Both the position numbers and the translations under genes were made by a program. From the NCBI RefSeq assembly GCF_902713615.1, contig NW_024055445.1, forward strand, positions 124,001-188,000: a stretch of 64,000 bases of DNA, given 5' to 3'. Position 1 is the stretch's first letter. Each line of letters begins with the position of its first letter. The notes below the pieces were generated by a model. It did not search any database and was not told where the DNA came from. It saw only the letters and a program-made list of their open reading frames with translations. This DNA comes from Scyliorhinus canicula (Eukaryota). Below, piece after piece: positions 23,142-40,128 of this stretch.

Positions 23142-23269
23142 GTGAGTAGTTTTTATTGTCCAAGTCTCTCACTGTTACTGTCTCAGTGTTAGTCTCTCTC
23201 TGGAATGTTCCAGAGTCACCAATCATTTCACCAGCATTAATCCTCGGGCTTTTTGATATATTTTTACAG

Positions 23270-23574
23270 GTGTCCAGTCGGATGTTGTGTTGACTCAGCC
23301 GGAGGCAGAGACCGGGCGTCCCGGAGGCTCCCTGACACTGACCTGTAAAACCAGCGGCTTCGATCTTAGCAGCTACAATATGTTCTGGATCCGGCAAGTT
23401 CCCGGGCAGGGGCTGGAGTGGTTGGTATATTACTATAGTTCATCCAACAACAACTACGCCGCAGCCATTAAAGATCGATTCACTGCGTCCAAAGACACTT
23501 CAACCAACAGCTTCTCTTTGGCCATGACGAACCTGAAGACCGAAGACACCGCCATCTATTACTGTGCAAGAAAC
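23270..23574 (+). CDS. IGHV: Immunoglobulin heavy-chain V segment (unrearranged, open)
   Basis: TTTTTACAG acceptor; [25 protein letters not shown]...[12 protein letters not shown]...DTAIYYCAR with both Cys and the Trp conserved. Confidence 0.97.
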
Positions 23575-23613
23575 CACAGCGAGAGGAACCAGGGCTGGAC
23601 CCGCACAAGAACA
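23575..23613 (+). promoter_or_regulatory. VH 23-RSS
   Basis: CACAGCG (23575-23581), 23-bp spacer, ACAAGAACA (23605-23613). Confidence 0.92.
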
Positions 23614-23982
23614 GCTCGAGAGGGAATTCAGCAACTTGCACCTTAACCTGAAGGTCAGCACTTGATCCAAATGTAATATTGATGCCAGTGATCAGAATCT
23701 AAACACAAGCTGCTTCTTACATAACTCACACAGAGAAAATTAAACAGTAAAACCGAACAAACCAATCGATCTAATAGGATGAGCTTTTGCCTGTTTACAT
23801 TTACTGTTAACACTTTCAGCTATTACAGACGTGGATATAATCCTCGCTTTATTATTGTGATACTTGGGAAAATCCATGTACATTGAGTTTGATAAACTGT
23901 TGCCTAAATTGTAAATTAGATTAGGGGCAATCGTCTATTTGAAGTGAATATTGAGCGGCAGAACTGAACAGAGAGTGAGTGC

Positions 23983-30316: not shown

Positions 30317-31265
30317 TGTTGCACGTTTTACTATGGGCGTAAAACGCGTTTATTGGAGTGTATTAACACGCCTCCGAGTTCGACGTGTGCTTAACACTGC
30401 TAGGCTCTGTTCTATGTAATTATTTAGCTCTGGAGTCGCCAGTTGCCGTATAGGCAACGTCACAAGTATTCCAAGGTCAAGTTCAAAGTAATAAAGACGA
30501 TACACCGATTAGTAAAGTTCAAACGATCAATATTTATTATACAGTTATAATAAATACTCATGCACACACTAAGAGACTAAGCTATAACTAAACTTAAGCA
30601 AACAGAATACTTATCTAACAGGAACAGGCAAGGTCAGAGAACGAGGCCTTCGTCCTGGTCTGGCACTGCAGCCTTCAGCAAGCGTTCTGGTACTTGGGAG
30701 TCTAGTGGGCTTGGATCGCGTAGCGAGCGTTGAACTTACGGTTTCGGCGGCTGGTGCTCAACGGCTGGGGTCAGGATGCAAGATGTCAGTCAGAGCCGGA
30801 GCACGGGTTTAACAGACCGGACAACACGAGGTCCCTATCTTTTATAGGGGTTCCATTGTCCTTCCCTCTTCTCGGGCGGGCTCTACCTATTGGATCAATT
30901 TCTTATCGATACTGGATTAATTCCCCAATGCGAGGGGGTCTCCGTGATGGAGGGGGCGTTTCTTATGTCCTTTTGTTTGGAGGTTTCTGGTGCCTCGATG
31001 TCTGGGTCTTGATTAGAATGTGTCCATTCAGAACCAAATGTATCTATTGTGTGGGTGTTCAAGTCTGATGGCCTCATTAGCATGCAAAGTGTTTTGCCAT
31101 TTGCACCTAGCTAAGGTCTTTTCACCTGAGCCCAAACTGGTTTCTGCTGCTGCAGAATGCAAACTGCTCTTTGCAGACTGCTGTTCTGGCTAAACTGTCT
31201 GTTTCCCAGCAGTCTTCTATTTTAGTTTGGCTCAGTGTCCATTTTGCGTGGCCAGCATGGCTACA
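30317..31265 (-). repeat. 3' LTR
   Basis: Identical by eye to 39180-40128 except 30769 G vs 39632 A and 30982 G vs 39845 A; minus-strand CCAAT and TATAAAA boxes. Confidence 0.97.
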
Positions 31266-31280
31266 TTCCCTCCTTGTGAT
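31266..31280 (-). promoter_or_regulatory. Polypurine tract
   Basis: Minus strand ...CAAGGAGGGAA directly precedes the TG of the 3' LTR. Confidence 0.75.
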
Positions 31281-31594: not shown

Positions 31595-31948
31595 TTACAG
31601 AGTGTTGTAATCAGTGAGGGGTTGAGGGGTTTGGTGGAATCCGAAGATGGGGGATTGCACTCTATAGATGGGTGAGGTGCTGGAACGAGAGGCTCTCCTC
31701 TTCCATTTCCTCAACCTGAGGGTCTGCACTAGGACGATGAGGATCGCGATCACCAACAGTGATTCGATTATGTAGGACATGGAGTACCACGTCATGAATT
31801 TAGTACACCAGGTCTGAACCTCGCTGATCAGAGCTGAGCACTGGGGGTTTGTTGTACTAACATTTACGGTGGGGGTTGTGGGGGAAACGTGTCTTGTTTC
31901 CACACATATACATATGACATTAAACAGTAATAAGTGGGCTTCCATCAT
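31595..31948 (-). CDS. 117-aa predicted single-pass membrane protein in the env position
   Basis: Tandem ATGs in good Kozak context; hydrophobic N-terminus MMEAHLLLFNVICICV, NVS sequon, C-x10-C, TM YIIESLLVIAILIVLVQTL, polybasic RLRKWKRR. The frame is open further upstream to TTG 32041. Confidence 0.6.
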   Translation of the reverse strand: MMEAHLLLFNVICICVETRHVSPTTPTVNVSTTNPQCSALISEVQTWCTKFMTWYSMSYIIESLLVIAILIVLVQTLRLRKWKRRASRSSTSPIYRVQSPIFGFHQTPQPLTDYNTL

Positions 31949-32884
31949 TTTGCTGTTCTTCTTCTTTCTCTTCCTTCTTCCTCCGGTATTGACAATCCTG
32001 GCTTCGACCTCTGTCTCGTCCTTTGAAACCTTTGGGATCAAGCACAGTATCTGTCAATACACAGTTTAAGACCTTTACTTGTTAGTGCATCTGTCTTTCA
32101 AATCCCAATTGACCCTTTAAAATGACTGGCTAAGTCACACCCTGTGACTCCCCTCATTTTTTTTTTCAAAAAGCGAATTTAAAGACCAGCATACACCTAA
32201 CAATCCTTCCTTCTGCGAGCCGTCTCGCAGGCTTTGCTGATTTACCATCCGAATGTTCCCGGATGTAAATAGCATGTGGGATGGTGGCCGAAGGGCTACC
32301 TAACGTAAAATGAAAACAAACTTGGAAACAAACATCCGAATGAGTTGCGTATGGGCCGCGACGGGTATGAGTTGGATGGGATCCCCGGGTAGGGCGTGCT
32401 GTGCCATACCCGAGCTTGGCTGACCAAGGGTTGGTTCTCAGACAGGGCGGGTCCTCAGTGCCGTTTGTCCACTGCCTGAGTAACCTGGAAAAAACGGGTA
32501 CGAATGTGTTTACCATGACTTGCAGCCTCTATTTCGCCGAATAGAGGGGCACCTAAAAAACCAAGGGAGCCAAGATGCTCCAACTGAGGACATCACTGAA
32601 GTTCTCAGAGATATCTGCGGACAAGCTATTTGGCGTGTGGCCTTACAACTTTGGAAAAGATCTCCAATCAAACCGAAGTTCTCAAAAGTTTCGGCAGACA
32701 AGCTAACGTGTATGTGAGGTGGTCACAATCTTTTCAGCTGAAAAGAAGATGTCCATCCTCCAGCTGAACAATTTACATTCCTGAAAACAAACAAACATGA
32801 AACGAAGACAAACATACGTGCAGGTTCCATCAGAAAGGACATCGTTTCCCTCAAACGATTCCTATCTTACATCATCTGGACACC

Positions 32885-35800
32885 TCACTTTGATTCTGCC
32901 TCTGTGAACAGGGTCACAAAGGGGTTGCCGTGTCGGGAGTCAGACACCGTGTCGTCCTGCTCTCCCGGATCCCACACCCTTGTGTGGATCAGGCATGCTA
33001 TTTTGGAATTGTGTGACCGGGGGTCACTCTCGTCATTGCGGACAAGTCTGTAGGAATTGTCCCTGTGCCATTGTGTAGCGTCGAGTGTGTTGTCGGGGTA
33101 GTCGGGGTCGGGTGGTGGTTCTGGATATTTGAGGTAGGTGACTTCCATGGGGTCACTGGAGTCGGAGTCGTAGTTGGTGCAGTGTGGGCTGTATGGCTGT
33201 GTGGTGTCGCTGTCTTCAGAGTCAGTGTCAGTCCTGCTGTCTCTGCTGTGGCAGCTTGTGGGCGTGTCGGGGCGTGGTCTGTAGTGGTCTGTGGGCGGAG
33301 TCGTGGGCGAGTCCGTTGATGAACTGGTCTGTGAGGGGGATGGTGGAAAAGTGTCTCTGGTGGGCGGGGTGAAGTGTTCTGCTGCATCCAGCAGGACATG
33401 GTGAGCATGGTTGGCCTGTGTTCCATATGCCTTTAACTGGTTTATATGGAACCACGCGGTCTTCCCATTAGGATACTTTATCCTGTAAACGGAGGGGCTA
33501 ATTTTGTCCGAAATTGAGTAGGGACCGGAATATTTTGGAGCCAAAAAACTGCTGGGGTTATAAACAGATAACATTACCTGTTGCCCAACCTGGAATTCTG
33601 TGGTGTGTACGGTCTTATTGAAACAGGCAGTACGTTGCTGTCGGCGTTTCCCTAGCTGGACTGCGGCTGCGAGCTGTGCAGACCTCACAGTCTCAACTAG
33701 ATCTTTAACTGCCTTTTCATGTGTGAGGGCCGTCAATTCGGGGCTTGTCATGTCCAGTCCTAAAAGGAATTCTGTACCTTTCATAGGGCGTCCGGTCATG
33801 AGTGTGTGTGGTGTGTATCCTGTCGATGTGGAGACAGTGTTCCTTATGAACATAAGTGCAAATGGGAGCACTGAATCCCATGTGGAATTATTCTCTTGGA
33901 CCATTTTCCTGAGGGTAGTTTTTAGGGTCCGATTCATGCGCTCCACAATCCCGCTGGACTGTGGATGATACGCAATGTGGAAGTTCTGTTTGATTCCGAA
34001 TATTGTCAGGACGTTCCTCATGACCCGTCCTGTAAAGTGAGATCCCTGGTCCGAATCGATACTTCGGGGTAAACCCCATCTCGTGAAGATGTGGTGGGTC
34101 AGGATCTTTGCAGCTGTCTTTGCTGTATTTGTTCGTGAGGGAAATGCCTCTACCCACTTGGTAAAGGTATCTATCACCACCAGAACGTATTTATAGCCAT
34201 TCCTACAAGGGGGCAATGGACCTATAAAGTCGATCTGGAGGTTTGTCCAAGGGCCGTTAACTGGGCGAGTATGCCGAAGTTGTGCTTTCTTAGAATACCT
34301 CTCCGGGTTATTCTGAGCACAAATCAGGCAATTCTCTATGTAGTGCGTTACATCATTCCTGAGATTAGGCCACCAACAGAGTTGCCTGAGGTGCCTCGTT
34401 GTTGCATCAATTCCCTGATGCCCGTGTCCGTCATGGAACAAGGCAATCATCTGATTCCTGTCCTGCTGTGGGACCACATAAAGTTGGTCCTTAATGATCA
34501 CACCCTCATGTGTGGTCAGTGCGTGTTTAAAGTGCTCGTAAGCAGGCACAAAGTTTCCCTTGAAAACCTCCCTGAGGTCTCCGTCCTGTTTCTGTGCTGC
34601 CACGAGATCTTTAATATCAGTCTGTGAGACTTGGACTGCGCTCACAGGGGCGCTAGCTGGTGCGCTAGCAGGGGGGGTCCATAAGTGTCCTCTCCTGGAA
34701 CCTGCCTTAGCCAACGCGTCGGCCTTTACATTCCCAGGGGGTGATGACCTATGGTGGCTTCTTACTTTTATTATGCCGAAGGTCCTGTCCTTCGCTTTCT
34801 CTAGGATATGCTGGAGTAAGGGGGCTGATGGAAGGGGTTTTCCGTCTGCGGAGACAAAACCTCGTGTCCTCCACAGGGGCAGAAAATCTGTTAGGCTATT
34901 GCATACATATAAGCTGTCTGAATATATGTCTGCTGGGCTGGGGAAAGAATCGGGGTGGTCCACTATGTACGCTATGGCTGCTAGCTCTGCTGCCTGCGCG
35001 CCTAAGTGACCTGGTAACTTAAGAGCTATCTCTTCGAGAGCGCGCCCCTGCGCGTCCTCTACATAGATGCCGCATCCTGTGATACGCTCACCATTTAAAA
35101 CTGTGGAGGAACCGTCTACATAAATCCTCAAGGGTCCACACGTGTCTGTGGGCTGGGGGCTTTGTTTCGGGTTCCCTATCTTCCTGGGGGGTGTTTTTGC
35201 TAAAAAGGGTCCTGTGTTATGCAGGGGAGCTACAATTTCACAGTCATGGGGTTGTCCGGGGTATTGGAGGTTGTCTGCTAAGTATGTGTGGGTGCGTGTC
35301 CGTTTTACAGTAATGTCCCGTCCTTGTAAAAGTAGGGTCCACCTAGCTGCCCTAATCTGGCTAACTGAACCGCCCTTCAGTCGACCGTCTAGTAGTAGCT
35401 GTGTGGGTGTGTGTTCGGTTAGAATGGTGATGGGGTTTAGTCCGGTGATGTATGAGAAATACTGCACTGCCCAGAAGACAGCAAGGAGGTGCCTCTCACA
35501 GGCTGAAAATCCTTGTTCTACCGGGTCTAACAGTCGGGAGGCATAAGCCACTGGTCTTAGCTGCTCGTGCCGTTCTTGAAGCAACACGGCCGAGAGGGTT
35601 AGATCTGTGCTAGCTACCTCGATTGCGTACGGTGAAAGTTGGTCGGGGACTAGCAGCGCGGGTGCTGCACTAAGGGCTCGTTTCAACTCTTCCACAGCGC
35701 CTGTATGCTGCGGAAGCCATTCCCAGGGGGCTCCTTTCTTAAGGAGGTCTGAAAGTGGGGCGGCTTTTGTCGCGAATCCGTCGATGTGGTTCCGACAATA

Positions 35801-37111
35801 GCCAACCAGTCCTAAAAACGACCGGAGGGCTGAAACATTCTGGGGAAGGGGCAATTTGACAATCGAATCAATTCTTTTGAATTCGATCTCGCGTTTGCCG
35901 TGCGTGATGACTGATCCCAAATACATCACTTTACTTTCCAATATTTGGGCCTTTTTCGGGTTAACTTTACAGCCAATTTCAGTTAAGAGTTCCAGGAGTT
36001 CGGCCAGAAGCGAAATGTGCTCTGCCTTTGTGTCTGTCTGCAGTAGTAGGTCGTCTACATACTGTACCAGACATTCGGGTCGGGAAAATTTTTCTAATCC
36101 ACTTGCCAGCTGTCGGTGGAAAATGGAGGGTGAATTGTGGAATCCTTGTGGGAGGCATGTCCACGTGTACTGCTGTGTTTTAAAAGTGAATGCGAATTTG
36201 TATTGGCACGCTTTTGCCAATGGTATTGACCAGAATCCATTACTGATGTCCAATACCGTGAAGTACTTGGCGTTGAGACCCTGCTTGAGCATGGTCTCGG
36301 GACTAGTAGCTACCGTTGGGGCTACTGCGGGGGTTACTTTATTGAGTTCCCGATAATCAATGGTCAGACGCCATGATCCATCGTGCTTCCTCACTGGCCA
36401 AATAGGGGCATTGTTGGTGGAGGCTACCGTTCTCAGTACACCTTGGTCCAACAAGCTACCTATAACTTTTTCTATTTCCACCTCTGCCTCGAGGGGAAAT
36501 CTATATTGCTTTTGCGGTCGGGGGTCCTGTCCGGTAACATGAACTTGTCCAGTCATTCTGCCACAGTCATGACGGTGACTTGCAAATGCTGTCCTGTGTT
36601 TGTTTAGTAGGGCCTTAATTTGTCTGTCGGTGTGGAGTGTAGTCAGGTCGAATGAGTACTCTCCCACTGCGCTAATCCGATTAGCGTAGTCTCCTACTGT
36701 GAGGGTGGCTGGGGCTCTGTCTGATCTCGCCATTCGCCAGACACACTGGTTCACTGGGTCGAACGACAAGCTGTGAGCGTTCATAAAATCTATCCCCAGG
36801 ATGTGCTCTGCTGTCCGGGGAAGATTTACTAGAACTACGGGGTGCCTTGTGCTAATGTTCCCTAGCTGGATCGCTACGGGTGCTGTGATATGTCCCTGCT
36901 GCGAGTGTCCGGTGAACCCGCTAAGTGTGATGGTGGAGGTGGTCGGCCACGTGTCTGAGTGTGCCGTGGTTGTGGAGTTAATGGTGGTGCGGGATCCTCC
37001 TGTGTCCCACAGTAACTCTATGGGCTTCCCTTTGACTTTTGCCGTGACTACGGGCCTCCCTGATGAGTCCCATAGTGTGTCACAGACCCAAGTGGGGGAG
37101 CCCGAACACCG
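32885..37111 (-). CDS. pol: Pol: protease, RT, tether RNase H, second RNase H, integrase with GPY/F motif, acidic Pro/Ser/Thr tail
   Basis: In frame after the gag stop with no further stops (109 codons translated by hand plus the 1299-aa ORF). Motifs: LLWDTGGS; LDISNGFW, LPQGFHNSP, YVDD; IYVDGSS, AQAAELAA, IYSDS, GNVKADALAK; HDGHGH...CLIC, QIDF, DSDQG, IVERMN, GPY. Confidence 0.95.
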   Translation of the reverse strand, partial: RCSGSPTWVCDTLWDSSGRPVVTAKVKGKPIELLWDTGGSRTTINSTTTAHSDTWPTTSTITLSGFTGHSQQGHITAPVAIQLGNISTRHPVVLVNLPRTAEHILGIDFMNAHSLSFDPVNQCVWRMARSDRAPATLTVGDYANRISAVGEYSFDLTTLHTDRQIKALLNKHRTAFASHRHDCGRMTGQVHVTGQDPRPQKQYRFPLEAEVEIEKVIGSLLDQGVLRTVASTNNAPIWPVRKHDGSWRLTIDYRELNKVTPAVAPTVATSPETMLKQGLNAKYFTVLDISNGFWSIPLAKACQYKFAFTFKTQQYTWTCLPQGFHNSPSIFHRQLASGLEKFSRPECLVQYVDDLLLQTDTKAEHISLLAELLELLTEIGCKVNPKKAQILESKVMYLGSVITHGKREIEFKRIDSIVKLPLPQNVSALRSFLGLVGYCRNHIDGFATKAAPLSDLLKKGAPWEWLPQHTGAVEELKRALSAAPALLVPDQLSPYAIEVASTDLTLSAVLLQERHEQLRPVAYASRLLDPVEQGFSACERHLLAVFWAVQYFSYITGLNPITILTEHTPTQLLLDGRLKGGSVSQIRAARWTLLLQGRDITVKRTRTHTYLADNLQYPGQPHDCEIVAPLHNTGPFLAKTPPRKIGNPKQSPQPTDTCGPLRIYVDGSSTVLNGERITGCGIYVEDAQGRALEEIALKLPGHLGAQAAELAAIAYIVDHPDSFPSPADIYSDSLYVCNSLTDFLPLWRTRGFVSADGKPLPSAPLLQHILEKAKDRTFGIIKVRSHHRSSPPGNVKADALAKAGSRRGHLWTPPASAPASAPVSAVQVSQTDIKDLVAAQKQDGDLREVFKGNFVPAYEHFKHALTTHEGVIIKDQLYVVPQQDRNQMIALFHDGHGHQGIDATTRHLRQLCWWPNLRNDVTHYIENCLICAQNNPERYSKKAQLRHTRPVNGPWTNLQIDFIGPLPPCRNGYKYVLVVIDTFTKWVEAFPSRTNTAKTAAKILTHHIFTRWGLPRSIDSDQGSHFTGRVMRNVLTIFGIKQNFHIAYHPQSSGIVERMNRTLKTTLRKMVQENNSTWDSVLPFALMFIRNTVSTSTGYTPHTLMTGRPMKGTEFLLGLDMTSPELTALTHEKAVKDLVETVRSAQLAAAVQLGKRRQQRTACFNKTVHTTEFQVGQQVMLSVYNPSSFLAPKYSGPYSISDKISPSVYRIKYPNGKTAWFHINQLKAYGTQANHAHHVLLDAAEHFTPPTRDTFPPSPSQTSSSTDSPTTPPTDHYRPRPDTPTSCHSRDSRTDTDSEDSDTTQPYSPHCTNYDSDSSDPMEVTYLKYPEPPPDPDYPDNTLDATQWHRDNSYRLVRNDESDPRSHNSKIACLIHTRVWDPGEQDDTVSDSRHGNPFVTLFTEAESK

Positions 37112-38860
37112 TCAGTTCGTCTCGTCCACATTGGTGGGTCCTGACTGTACTGCTACATTGTGGATGGGTTTTGCTTTGTTGCGGTTCAGAGTGCCTGTCT
37201 GCTGGCCTCTCTGAGATCGCTGGGGTGCTTGGCACTCTTTAGCCCAATGCCCTAACTGTCCACAGTTATAGCATTCCTGTCCTTTCTGTTGTGGGCTGCT
37301 CTTGCCGTCATTTACCCATGCGGGCTTCTGGTGCTCTCTGACTGCTTGGATATCTGCAGCAGCCTGAGCCTCTTCTGGGGATCTAACCTTTCCTTTTGCC
37401 TGAAGCGATTGCTCCCAAGCGCGGGACAATCTTTTCAGGACCCATTTCTCGTTATGGGCCTCTTCTGAGGGGTCGTAACTGTTGCAAGCGCTCTGTCCTG
37501 CTTCTGTTGCGTGTGAGATAATTGTGCGCGTCCACTTAACCATGTTTTCGCGGGTTAAATGCGCTCTATCTAGCTGTCCGAAAACTGCGCTGAAATGAAT
37601 CCACAGCCTTCCTGCGAATGCTGTGGGGTGTTCGGATCTCTTCTGCCTGCACTTATTCAATCCTTCTACGGGGTCACCTCTATTGTACCCGATGGCATCT
37701 AAAATGGCGGTGTGCATCTCCTCTAGGCTGCCTCCTGCCACGTTTTGTGGGTCGGGGAGGGCTGCTACTACGCTCTGGTCTAAGCTCAGCACGGTGAGCT
37801 TAACCTGCTCTCTCTCATCCAGGCCGTACATGGTAGCCTGCTGTTTTACTTTAGCGAAGAACTGGTGGGGGTCTGCGGTGGGGAGGAACGGAGTGATCTT
37901 TTCACAAGCGTCCCTTAGCTGGGTTACTGTTAAAGGGGTGGTGTAAGTTATGTCTGGGGCGCCTTCTGATTCGGCTTTCCTCTGTGTGGTTACGGGATTC
38001 ATGGGTGCGGTTATGATCTGAGCTGTGGGGGGTTGGGGTGCCTGTCGTTTCTGCTGAGCTGCGGGCGCACATGTTCCCTGAACATAACGCTGCGCTGTCT
38101 CGCTTAATTCCTGCCAATCTGGGGCATTTTCCCCATCTAACTGAGCTCCAAAGGTGCTTTGGAAGCCATTCTGCACCGAAAGCAGAGATTGCAGTTCCGC
38201 AATCTGTTTCCTGCATTTCGCGTGGTCAACTGTGCTTTGTCTTTGTTCGGTTGTTGCAGCATGGAGTGCTCTCAAAGCTGCTTTGAGATCGGAACATTGC
38301 CTCTGCAATGCCTCCACCTGCTTTTCCGATTCCTGTCTTATCAGAACGGCACGTTGCACGTCCTGATAGGCTTTCTCATACTGGGTCTGGGAACTGCTCA
38401 GATGAGCTAGACAAGACTGGTGAGCCCTCTTGGCATCATCCACCTCTCTATCCTTCTCTGCCAACTTCCCTTTTAATTCCAGGTTTTCTTTCTCGACGTC
38501 CCTGACATCGACCTTACTCATTCGGTTCCTTTCCTCTAAATCTGCCCGGAGCGTCCTGATGACCTCCTCTGCGCCTCGCAACTGTGCCAAGCAGGACACA
38601 ATTGCCATCGGCTTGCGTGCTTTACCTAAACTCTTTTTGTGTATTTGAGAGAGGTTCTCCCACCAAGTATGACCTATACTCCCGGGACCTGTCTCCTCAT
38701 TTGCACAAAACTCTTTCCAAAGGGGCCATCCCTTTCCTTGTAAATATTTGCGGAGTTCCAGCTCCCACGTGGGACACTGGCCTACCCTGCTACTGCTGCT
38801 GGTCGCTGCGACCACAAACTTTGCTGGATCCATCAGACGTTCCATTGCCTGCATGGCCAT
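37112..38860 (-). CDS. gag: Gag (582 aa) with long predicted coiled coil and one CCHC knuckle
   Basis: GAAATGG start context; CYNCGQLGHWAKEC (37231-37272); position between PBS and pol. Confidence 0.9.
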   Translation of the reverse strand: MAMQAMERLMDPAKFVVAATSSSSRVGQCPTWELELRKYLQGKGWPLWKEFCANEETGPGSIGHTWWENLSQIHKKSLGKARKPMAIVSCLAQLRGAEEVIRTLRADLEERNRMSKVDVRDVEKENLELKGKLAEKDREVDDAKRAHQSCLAHLSSSQTQYEKAYQDVQRAVLIRQESEKQVEALQRQCSDLKAALRALHAATTEQRQSTVDHAKCRKQIAELQSLLSVQNGFQSTFGAQLDGENAPDWQELSETAQRYVQGTCAPAAQQKRQAPQPPTAQIITAPMNPVTTQRKAESEGAPDITYTTPLTVTQLRDACEKITPFLPTADPHQFFAKVKQQATMYGLDEREQVKLTVLSLDQSVVAALPDPQNVAGGSLEEMHTAILDAIGYNRGDPVEGLNKCRQKRSEHPTAFAGRLWIHFSAVFGQLDRAHLTRENMVKWTRTIISHATEAGQSACNSYDPSEEAHNEKWVLKRLSRAWEQSLQAKGKVRSPEEAQAAADIQAVREHQKPAWVNDGKSSPQQKGQECYNCGQLGHWAKECQAPQRSQRGQQTGTLNRNKAKPIHNVAVQSGPTNVDETN

Positions 38861-39155: not shown

Positions 39156-39174
39156 GTCCCGGCGGATGTCGCCA
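39156..39174 (-). promoter_or_regulatory. Primer-binding site, tRNA-Arg(UCU)-like with one bulged base
   Basis: TGGCGACATCCGCCGGGAC starts 5 nt inside the 5' LTR. The vertebrate tRNA-Arg(UCU) 3' end as I recall it (GUCCCGGCGGAGUCGCCA) predicts TGGCGAC-TCCGCCGGGAC. Confidence 0.7.
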
Positions 39175-39179
39175 CTAAA

Positions 39180-40128
39180 TGTTGCACGTTTTACTATGGG
39201 CGTAAAACGCGTTTATTGGAGTGTATTAACACGCCTCCGAGTTCGACGTGTGCTTAACACTGCTAGGCTCTGTTCTATGTAATTATTTAGCTCTGGAGTC
39301 GCCAGTTGCCGTATAGGCAACGTCACAAGTATTCCAAGGTCAAGTTCAAAGTAATAAAGACGATACACCGATTAGTAAAGTTCAAACGATCAATATTTAT
39401 TATACAGTTATAATAAATACTCATGCACACACTAAGAGACTAAGCTATAACTAAACTTAAGCAAACAGAATACTTATCTAACAGGAACAGGCAAGGTCAG
39501 AGAACGAGGCCTTCGTCCTGGTCTGGCACTGCAGCCTTCAGCAAGCGTTCTGGTACTTGGGAGTCTAGTGGGCTTGGATCGCGTAGCGAGCGTTGAACTT
39601 ACGGTTTCGGCGGCTGGTGCTCAACGGCTGGAGTCAGGATGCAAGATGTCAGTCAGAGCCGGAGCACGGGTTTAACAGACCGGACAACACGAGGTCCCTA
39701 TCTTTTATAGGGGTTCCATTGTCCTTCCCTCTTCTCGGGCGGGCTCTACCTATTGGATCAATTTCTTATCGATACTGGATTAATTCCCCAATGCGAGGGG
39801 GTCTCCGTGATGGAGGGGGCGTTTCTTATGTCCTTTTGTTTGGAAGTTTCTGGTGCCTCGATGTCTGGGTCTTGATTAGAATGTGTCCATTCAGAACCAA
39901 ATGTATCTATTGTGTGGGTGTTCAAGTCTGATGGCCTCATTAGCATGCAAAGTGTTTTGCCATTTGCACCTAGCTAAGGTCTTTTCACCTGAGCCCAAAC
40001 TGGTTTCTGCTGCTGCAGAATGCAAACTGCTCTTTGCAGACTGCTGTTCTGGCTAAACTGTCTGTTTCCCAGCAGTCTTCTATTTTAGTTTGGCTCAGTG
40101 TCCATTTTGCGTGGCCAGCATGGCTACA
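39180..40128 (-). repeat. 5' LTR
   Basis: 949 bp, TG...CA termini, partner of 30317-31265. Confidence 0.97.

Follow-up and report, generated by a model that had tools for sequence, protein, structure and literature searches.

The window, that is, the whole 64,000-nt stretch of catshark (Scyliorhinus canicula) DNA analyzed here, contains a young and complete provirus on the minus strand, whose 5' long terminal repeat (LTR; 39180..40128) and 3' LTR (30317..31265; TG...CA) are 99.8% identical, with 2 mismatches in 950 nt, and which is flanked by a target-site duplication of 4 bp. Between the LTRs, likewise on the minus strand, lie a primer-binding-site-like sequence (39157..39174), which we take to resemble the 3' end of a tRNA-Arg, followed by gag (37112..38860; 582 aa, one CCHC knuckle, no Gly2) and pol (32885..37111; 1,408 codons encoding protease, reverse transcriptase (RT), tether, RNase H, and integrase), both of them open and sharing one frame, separated by a single TGA. 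The ~1.6 kb from the pol stop at 32885 to the polypurine tract (PPT; 31266..31275), a motif that recurs in most diverged copies, holds a small open reading frame (ORF; 31595..31948, minus strand, ATG...TAA) encoding a protein of 117 aa, predicted to be a type I membrane glycoprotein and called mini-Env here. A sequence-only reading of the locus had claimed that no env-sized ORF exists between pol and the PPT, and this holds: the longest sense frame in that interval, 152 codons from stop to stop, is the small ORF's own. The provirus sits in or near an immunoglobulin heavy-chain cluster, about 7 kb downstream of an immunoglobulin V-set exon on the plus strand (23257..23646) that is followed by a recombination-signal-like sequence. 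That the host is a catshark agrees with two RefSeq proteins assigned to Scyliorhinus canicula, which are 100% identical to the genome across the parts compared. Elsewhere in the catshark genome (locus L002 on C328) a near-identical copy of the insertion and its flank, 99.9% identical over 4.4 kb, represents either a duplicated cluster or an alternative haplotype.

The best hits of pol are frog and coelacanth proteins at 42 to 46% identity, with one further protein at 48%, and in a phylogeny of RT that includes no named snakehead retrovirus (SnRV) sequence the window groups with coelacanth and frog elements (98/92). Against RT structures, the RT of the window scored 213 bits with the MLV type, 207 bits with foamy virus, and 139 bits with Ty3. 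Two RT motifs of the window, compared at the first two of three places for each motif, occur in SnRV rows in part of a published alignment (PMC7947760 supplement), where the lokiretrovirus rows among those compared lack both. The gag and pol genes in one frame with a single stop, and a tether plus RNase H, are features of the SnRV clade. For SnRV and related viruses, an excerpt of PMC2717909 describes gag and pol in frame, a Gag that is not myristoylated, and a single zinc finger; an SnRV-like lineage is also reported from the elephant shark (PMC4422223, in part). We therefore describe the element as putatively SnRV-like from its sequence, with an RT that may be closest to that of SnRV. A first assignment to the lokiretroviruses, which share dual RNase H and "NYNRIN-like" database neighbors (PMC7947760, in part), was rejected, as the Loki RT rows compared lack the motifs common to the window and SnRV, and the excerpted text of that paper names no cartilaginous fish host. 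A search of the catshark genome for PF00523, the paramyxovirus-F-like Env, run without a positive control, returned nothing.

Within the SnRV clade, which includes CmiERV lineage I and OVEX1, the catshark element thus finds its counterparts in RT motifs (SnRV), in-frame gag-pol behind one stop, dual RNase H, and a non-myristoylated one-knuckle Gag (SnRV; PMC2717909, in part), but not in its env region. SnRV encodes a complete Env as well as accessory ORFs, chicken OVEX1 has an 873-aa third ORF, and the elephant-shark CmiERVs are defined by having env, whereas env in the catshark element is down to 117 codons. Loss or decay of env together with high copy number is reportedly also seen in IAP and MusD, a likeness to the catshark family; in the latter, in contrast, a defined piece stays under purifying selection as synonymous sites near saturation.

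This endogenous retrovirus (ERV) family has at least 1,800 copies in the catshark genome, where 1,858 sites match a 24-mer of the ORF with one mismatch at most, 1,036 match a 24-mer of the pol end, and none matches the control 24-mers. Of 40 DNA hits that were scored, 30 loci were fetched, counting the window and a near-duplicate, and every one of them keeps the ORF intact; stops are absent from all 150 best-scoring of 5,325 candidates, a sample biased toward intact copies. Homologue searches recovered three further subfamilies (B, C, and D), whose proteins are 42 to 62% identical to that of the window and whose ORFs typically lie 0.8 to 1.0 kb behind the end of pol, where pol was seen; at least four subfamilies hold the small ORF at one conserved location. 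For a sample chosen independently of the ORF, we went down the ranking of integrase hits and used the 40 that come next after three from another lineage, a selection that leans to young copies. The ORF is present in 39 of these (30 intact, 9 broken), while the remaining copy has a LINE instead, and the distance from the end of pol to the PPT is 1.51 to 1.73 kb in 34 of the 35 in which a PPT was found. An env-sized frame was found in none of these 40 direct sister copies, and a search for an Env fusion-peptide region inside small-ORF elements gave no match. A second gene in the 940-nt spacer was considered and rejected, with stops varying among copies in all frames. Two pairs of copies lie 8.87 to 8.88 kb apart (C2:225875646 and 225884529; C3:20729625 and 20738491), a spacing that suggests tandem proviruses with a common LTR.

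All the features that the sequence-only reading had listed for the protein, namely, a hydrophobic N terminus, a Thr/Pro-rich stretch with an NVS sequon, a C-x10-C loop, one transmembrane (TM) helix, the cluster RLRKWKRR, and a short tail, are present in the window. The N terminus reaches an 11-residue Kyte-Doolittle (KD) peak of 2.35, and a hydropathy heuristic predicts a signal peptide over approximately residues 1 to 18 (31895..31948); a signal-peptide-like hydrophobic core (8-residue KD of at least 2) is found in 28 of 30 aligned rows, with a small-x-small site at residues 18 to 22 that is clearest in subfamilies B to D. The Thr/Pro-rich stretch carries the N-glycosylation sequon N29-V-S (31856..31864), of which N29 is invariant and S31 is kept in at least 90% of the 30 rows, and all 30 rows have a sequon within the first 45 residues. 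An aromatic pre-membrane helix (residues 46 to 59; 31772..31813) with invariant W47, C48, F51, W54, Y55, S56, and Y59 aligns with the pre-TM region of Env and leads into a predicted TM helix at about residues 59 to 77 (31718..31774; 19-residue KD peak 2.43), which hydropathy identifies as the sole TM segment besides the N-terminal hydrophobic stretch. There follow the juxtamembrane polybasic cluster RLRKWKRR (residues 78 to 85; 31694..31717), in which R78, K81, W82, R84, and R85 are invariant, and a cytoplasmic tail of 32 aa (31598..31693), conserved over residues 95 to 110 in the alignment. The further invariant positions of the 30-row alignment are M1, E62, L65, A68, S99, Q106, and P110. Gly2, the myristoylation motif, occurs in 0 of 30 rows, a Cys in the TM region occurs in 25, and the aromatic helix is amphipathic, with a moment of 0.45 at residues 41 to 51. 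AlphaFold2 modeled helices at residues 2 to 19 and 35 to 90, supporting the TM helix, with a mean pLDDT of 68 that rises to 79 to 95 over residues 41 to 80. Once the predicted signal peptide is removed, the mature ectodomain would measure about 40 aa, in a probable type I topology.

One of the listed features proved to be restricted in its distribution. The loop of the window protein, C37-x10-C48, joins the invariant C48 to a C37 that occurs in 28 of 30 integrase-picked copies with an intact ORF, which come almost entirely from the window's clade, but that none of the 26 copies from the remoter subfamilies B to D has; because C37 is absent from B to D, the Cys loop is a later gain of one clade, the youngest.

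The conservation of the ORF was quantified on 45 loci with an intact frame of 105 to 122 aa, retained from 56 after 11 were dropped. In all six pairs of subfamilies, the window's included, dN/dS is 0.18 to 0.36, with upper 95% bounds of no more than 0.58, while the two other frames of the same pairs give 0.76 to 2.38, so that only frame 0 stays below 1; pS between the four groups is 0.44 to 0.66, meaning that synonymous sites are near saturation. By maximum likelihood, the 30 intact copies picked through integrase give an omega of 0.27 to 0.28, a fit 67 lnL units above that at omega = 1, and integrase, for comparison, gives 0.05 to 0.06. Insertions and deletions follow the same pattern: the 30 youngest copies have no indel columns in the 354 nt of the ORF versus 18 and 31 in its flanks, and there are 510 length variants, of which all 100 listed are exactly 3 nt longer. 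The ORF, then, is carried by 39 of 40 copies and is not neutral, as had been asked of it; it is under purifying selection, the protein itself being kept, and this selection together with its conservation across diverged subfamilies makes it more than a chance frame. Constraint centers on the membrane-proximal helix, the TM helix, the basic cluster, and the tail: dN/dS is 0.08 to 0.17 over residues 46 to 88, against 0.26 to 1.07 over the signal and Thr/Pro regions, and in the tail it is 0.11 to 0.15 between the window's clade and the others and 0.22 to 0.49 among the others.

Upstream of the ORF lies a conserved splice-acceptor region (32030..32090, minus strand) whose AG ends at 32030, with branch-point-like motifs upstream of it. 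The AG is retained in 17 of 17 diverged copies, the first ATG past it is the ORF start in 17 of 18, and the region resembles the env acceptor of env-bearing relatives (L202, L161, and L160). From these features, we infer that the ORF would be expressed through splicing of the mRNA at the former env acceptor. In oligo-dT-primed reads (X24), the depth over the ORF is 34 to 49 on the strand expected of sense RNA versus 2 to 6, and about 1 to 15 across gag-pol, in reads that are pooled from many copies and in which 3' bias and subfamily divergence confound depth; the family is transcribed in the sense orientation. Against this simple model, no junction to 32030 is listed in the four RNA or RNA-like data sets in which one was sought, and X24 depth jumps in the vicinity of 32750 instead of at 32030. 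The same depth climbs about fourfold across 32450 to 32780, and position 32781 in the window has a pyrimidine-rich AG, which is not aligned as conserved in the other subfamilies and has no listed junction.

Between the acceptor and pol, a conserved noncoding block (32140..32510, minus strand) is mostly 75 to 94% identical per 40-nt bin to subfamilies B and C, which exceeds the DNA identity of the ORF, and is a candidate export, packaging, or translation element acting in cis as RNA. RNA folding gave a structure conservation of 0.65 with 3 of 59 pairs compensatory, which is weak covariation, and a column-shuffle control did not separate the block from other regions; on both counts, an RNA structure is not demonstrated. 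An Rfam search with the block gave no match beyond one chance-level hit. At L203, sequence related to the block is present as tandem repeats.

The catshark genome also holds degraded env-bearing relatives, and these bear on the origin of the ORF. In an integrase tree, an env-bearing lineage E (L160 and L161), whose Env spans about 630 codons, and the small-ORF lineage fall into a single clade with 100% bootstrap, either as sisters or with one nested in the other. A profile of the C-terminal end of the E Env, built from 22 of 30 fetched sequences after 8 short matches were dropped, aligned by hhalign with columns 35 to 90 of the ORF profile at a probability of 61%, an E value of 8e-5, and a score of 30.3, matching the pre-membrane helix, the TM, and the basic region; the match was tested after the motifs had first been noticed by eye, and its alignment needs a 10-residue gap. 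Zone-by-zone shuffling (pre-TM, TM, post-TM) gave scores of 13.2 ± 3.0, with none of 100 shuffles reaching 30.3, and as controls a more distant Env scored 16.4 and stretches of G protein-coupled receptors 9 to 14. Single subfamilies against the E Env scored 24.9 to 29.1, with probabilities of 26 to 56%. The N-terminal part of the ORF gave no match to the N terminus of Env (score 9.9; shuffles, 7.9 ± 1.9). At the DNA level, a profile of the acceptor matched 22 to 29 nt before the Env start at L202 (E = 0.0009), L161 (0.0095), and L160 (0.07), with no hits on reversed or shuffled sequence and none at the env pieces of L157 and L159, which lie behind two small-ORF copies, or in the distant lineage. 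The env copies themselves are old and full of stops.

On this evidence the small ORF probably derives from Env. An internally deleted env, one of the alternatives raised by the sequence-only reading, thereby gains support as the origin through the matches to the Env C-terminal end and the acceptor, though in the form of an ancient derivative maintained by selection, not of a deletion in decay. The competing account, in which env gave way, at the same acceptor, to a gene of other origin (captured or arisen de novo) and the C-terminal match is convergent, could appeal to the hhalign probability of just 61% (lower still for single subfamilies), to the unmatched Env N terminus, to TM-proximal spacing that is off by about 10 residues, and to a weak Pfam match to TMEM156, which 17 of the 30 rows show at an E value of 0.0009 at best, well short of the cutoff. 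We consider it unlikely: the score tracks pol kinship, falling from the nearest Env to the distant one and on to unrelated stretches, it withstands shuffles that preserve the hydrophobic layout, and the sole database homologues of the ORF are catshark gene models that contain an exon of the ERV itself.

A second, degraded family (L199 to L218; e.g., L201, L203, and L210) has lost most of env. At most of its loci, the pre-TM, TM, and tail of Env, 49 to 62% identical to E, lie about 100 nt behind a similar acceptor without a signal peptide, while L202 and L204, within the same range of loci, are env bearing; the family looks like an independent env deletion that retained the same piece of Env. 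A more distant env-bearing SnRV-like lineage (L095, L143 to L148, L163, and L164), close to protein P0004, is represented by fetched copies that are all broken.

The 117-aa protein gave no hits in a word-indexed protein search, no match among PDB sequences or viral contigs, no Pfam family above the cutoff, and nothing at a score of 0.9 in an atlas search, where the best was 0.89. Foldseek against BFVD likewise returned nothing at an E value of 0.001 or below, which says little because the model is one long helix. Metagenomes contributed a single 16-residue match (L219).

Here, we propose that a selected mini-Env gene occupies the env slot of an SnRV-like catshark ERV family, and that its product would join a predicted signal peptide and a short glycosylated stalk to the pre-membrane helix, TM, and tail of a likely ancestral Env. 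Anchored in the membrane, the mini-Env would gather the non-myristoylated capsids of the element at a cell membrane, and this capsid-anchoring or trafficking role is our favored, if tentative, reading, with a probability of roughly 40%. It is favored because constraint is membrane centered, Gag lacks Gly2, and there is a precedent in foamy viruses, where Gag without a membrane-targeting signal depends on Env to reach membranes (PMC3705266, in part). The position of the ORF is that of a retroviral Env, between pol and the PPT and behind an env splice acceptor. A surface subunit, a cleavage site, a fusion peptide, and heptad repeats were sought in the ectodomain of about 40 aa and none was found; lacking surface subunit, fusion peptide, and heptad repeats, the protein cannot act as a class I fusion protein. 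Two considerations count against an anchor working through the tail. Foamy viruses make their Gag contact via the Env leader peptide and not the tail, and a purely cytoplasmic anchor leaves the invariant outer-side residues N29, W47, C48, F51, and W54 unexplained. Prediction of a complex between Gag residues 1 to 260 and ORF residues 40 to 117 scored 0.00, which is evidence neither way.

Compatible with capsid anchoring, and not mutually exclusive with it, yet distinctly less likely, is a role like that of the reovirus FAST proteins and insect sORF2, in which surface clusters of the protein would bring touching membranes together and let capsids cross into a neighboring cell, for example from soma to germ line; such a role would have been reached by convergence, likely from an Env remnant. 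Env-less LTR elements of insects achieve transfer from soma to oocyte in this way, and 7 of 22 Lepidoptera elements encode sORF2 behind pol, according to part of a preprint (bioRxiv 2025.03.14.642691). In favor of this role are the size of the catshark protein, its single TM helix and juxtamembrane polybasic cluster, the aromatic helix, amphipathic in character, within a mature ectodomain of about 40 aa, and the frequent TM-region Cys (25 of 30 rows). The success of the family, with at least 1,858 copies, might be added, but high copy number is expected anyway of env-less ERVs that copy within germ cells. The sequence-only reading had itself likened the layout to FAST proteins, and the likeness to this group (p10, p13, p14, p15, p16, and p22) stands for a protein of about 100 to 200 aa (80 to 200 aa more broadly) with one TM, a predicted N-out/C-in orientation, and a juxtamembrane basic cluster. 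It fails elsewhere: FAST proteins have a reverse signal anchor, no signal peptide, and no glycosylation (PMC3952855, in part; their features are also described in part of PMC12945298), whereas the catshark protein has a signal peptide predicted by a hydropathy heuristic and an invariant, predicted sequon in 30 of 30 rows. FAST proteins further carry myristate or, in p10, a cystine loop, whereas Gly2 occurs in 0 of 30 catshark rows and the loop, missing from 26 of 26 B to D copies, belongs mostly to the window's clade. With the predicted signal peptide, the invariant sequon, the lack of Gly2, and a Cys loop derived in one clade, FAST membership is unsupported, and the databases searched yielded no FAST protein as a hit, whether by sequence or by structure. 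The sORF2 of the insect MDG1 group is closer in being a single-pass protein of an env-less LTR element with a polybasic patch and an amphipathic ectodomain motif, but it belongs to Metaviridae, is usually myristoylated, and has an ectodomain of about 30 aa (10.1101/2025.03.14.642691, in part), while the catshark protein comes from a vertebrate ERV of Retroviridae, is predicted to bear a signal peptide and a glycan, and is likely Env derived.

Somewhat less probable again is an accessory protein directed against the host, either a viroporin or a Vpu-like or adenovirus-E3-like glycoprotein that down-regulates a restriction factor or immune receptor. The layout of a short glycosylated stalk, a TM helix with polar E62, a basic region, and a conserved tail would suit it and is common among such small glycoproteins. 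SnRV encodes small accessory ORFs (PMC12193657, in part), and below the thresholds there are resemblances to influenza M2 (0.85 in the atlas) and to adenovirus E3A (E = 0.25 in Pfam), although both scores are at chance level. Against this account, the ORF occupies the env slot with the env acceptor, and its strong purifying selection and undiversified core would be less typical of a surface in conflict with the host. The weakest alternative, a passive remnant kept through overlap with cis-acting RNA signals near the 3' end, could point to the degraded L199-to-L218 family, which likewise retained the Env C-terminal end behind its acceptor, and to the 3' ORF region of SnRV, which matters in cis and not as protein (PMC12193657, in part), but it is highly improbable and already largely refuted by frame-specific dN/dS (below 1 in frame 0 alone), by a protein kept at pS of 0.44 to 0.66, and by in-frame indels (0 columns in the ORF versus 18 and 31 flanking; 100 of 100 listed variants +3 nt).

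Loss of env in ERVs is usually viewed as plain deletion and decay, whereas this highly amplified catshark clade kept a small membrane protein under selection. Strong selection on what fills the env slot, across lineages with near-saturated synonymous sites, points to a function of Env, neither receptor binding nor classical fusion, that an env-less ERV still needs. That Env has here shrunk to a protein of about 100 residues that passes capsids from cell to cell, possibly from soma to germ line, is on present evidence improbable, slightly more so than the FAST- or sORF2-like role as a whole; if true, it would give vertebrate ERVs their first equivalent of insect sORF2 and FAST proteins, and for the first time a minimal fusogen could be traced back to the membrane-proximal part of a class I fusion protein. 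The protein is small and testable, and it raises the question of whether cell-to-cell movement without Env, known from insect retrotransposons, is open to vertebrate ERVs as well. In the literature searched, which takes in a minority of subscription journals, we found no published account of the ORF, or of a selected mini-Env in a vertebrate ERV. In the excerpts available, a 2026 preprint on chondrichthyan Env candidates deals with full-length epsilon-type Envs (10.64898/2026.05.06.723177), a screen for invading ERVs demanded an intact env (PMC10435555), and the retroelement survey of the sORF2 preprint was limited to arthropods (bioRxiv 10.1101/2025.03.14.642691); related literature, also in part, comprises 10.1101/2024.03.25.586437, PMC9040795, PMC12193657, and PMC4977317. 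Screens that demand an Env-sized ORF or a myristoylation motif would overlook a mini-Env.

The only database homologues of the ORF, 11 catshark RefSeq gene models (P0062 to P0072) that end in the ERV exon, include HEPACAM2-like, CFAP36, and PTGER3 isoforms and, as automatic annotations, are no proof of splicing. Their lengths of 204 to 556 aa raised the notion of a longer true protein, which was rejected, these being host gene models with the ERV exon as the last exon. In the two models that could be checked on the catshark genome, the match starts at the conserved acceptor AG. The acceptor may give rise to chimeras in which a host transcript gains a TM tail.
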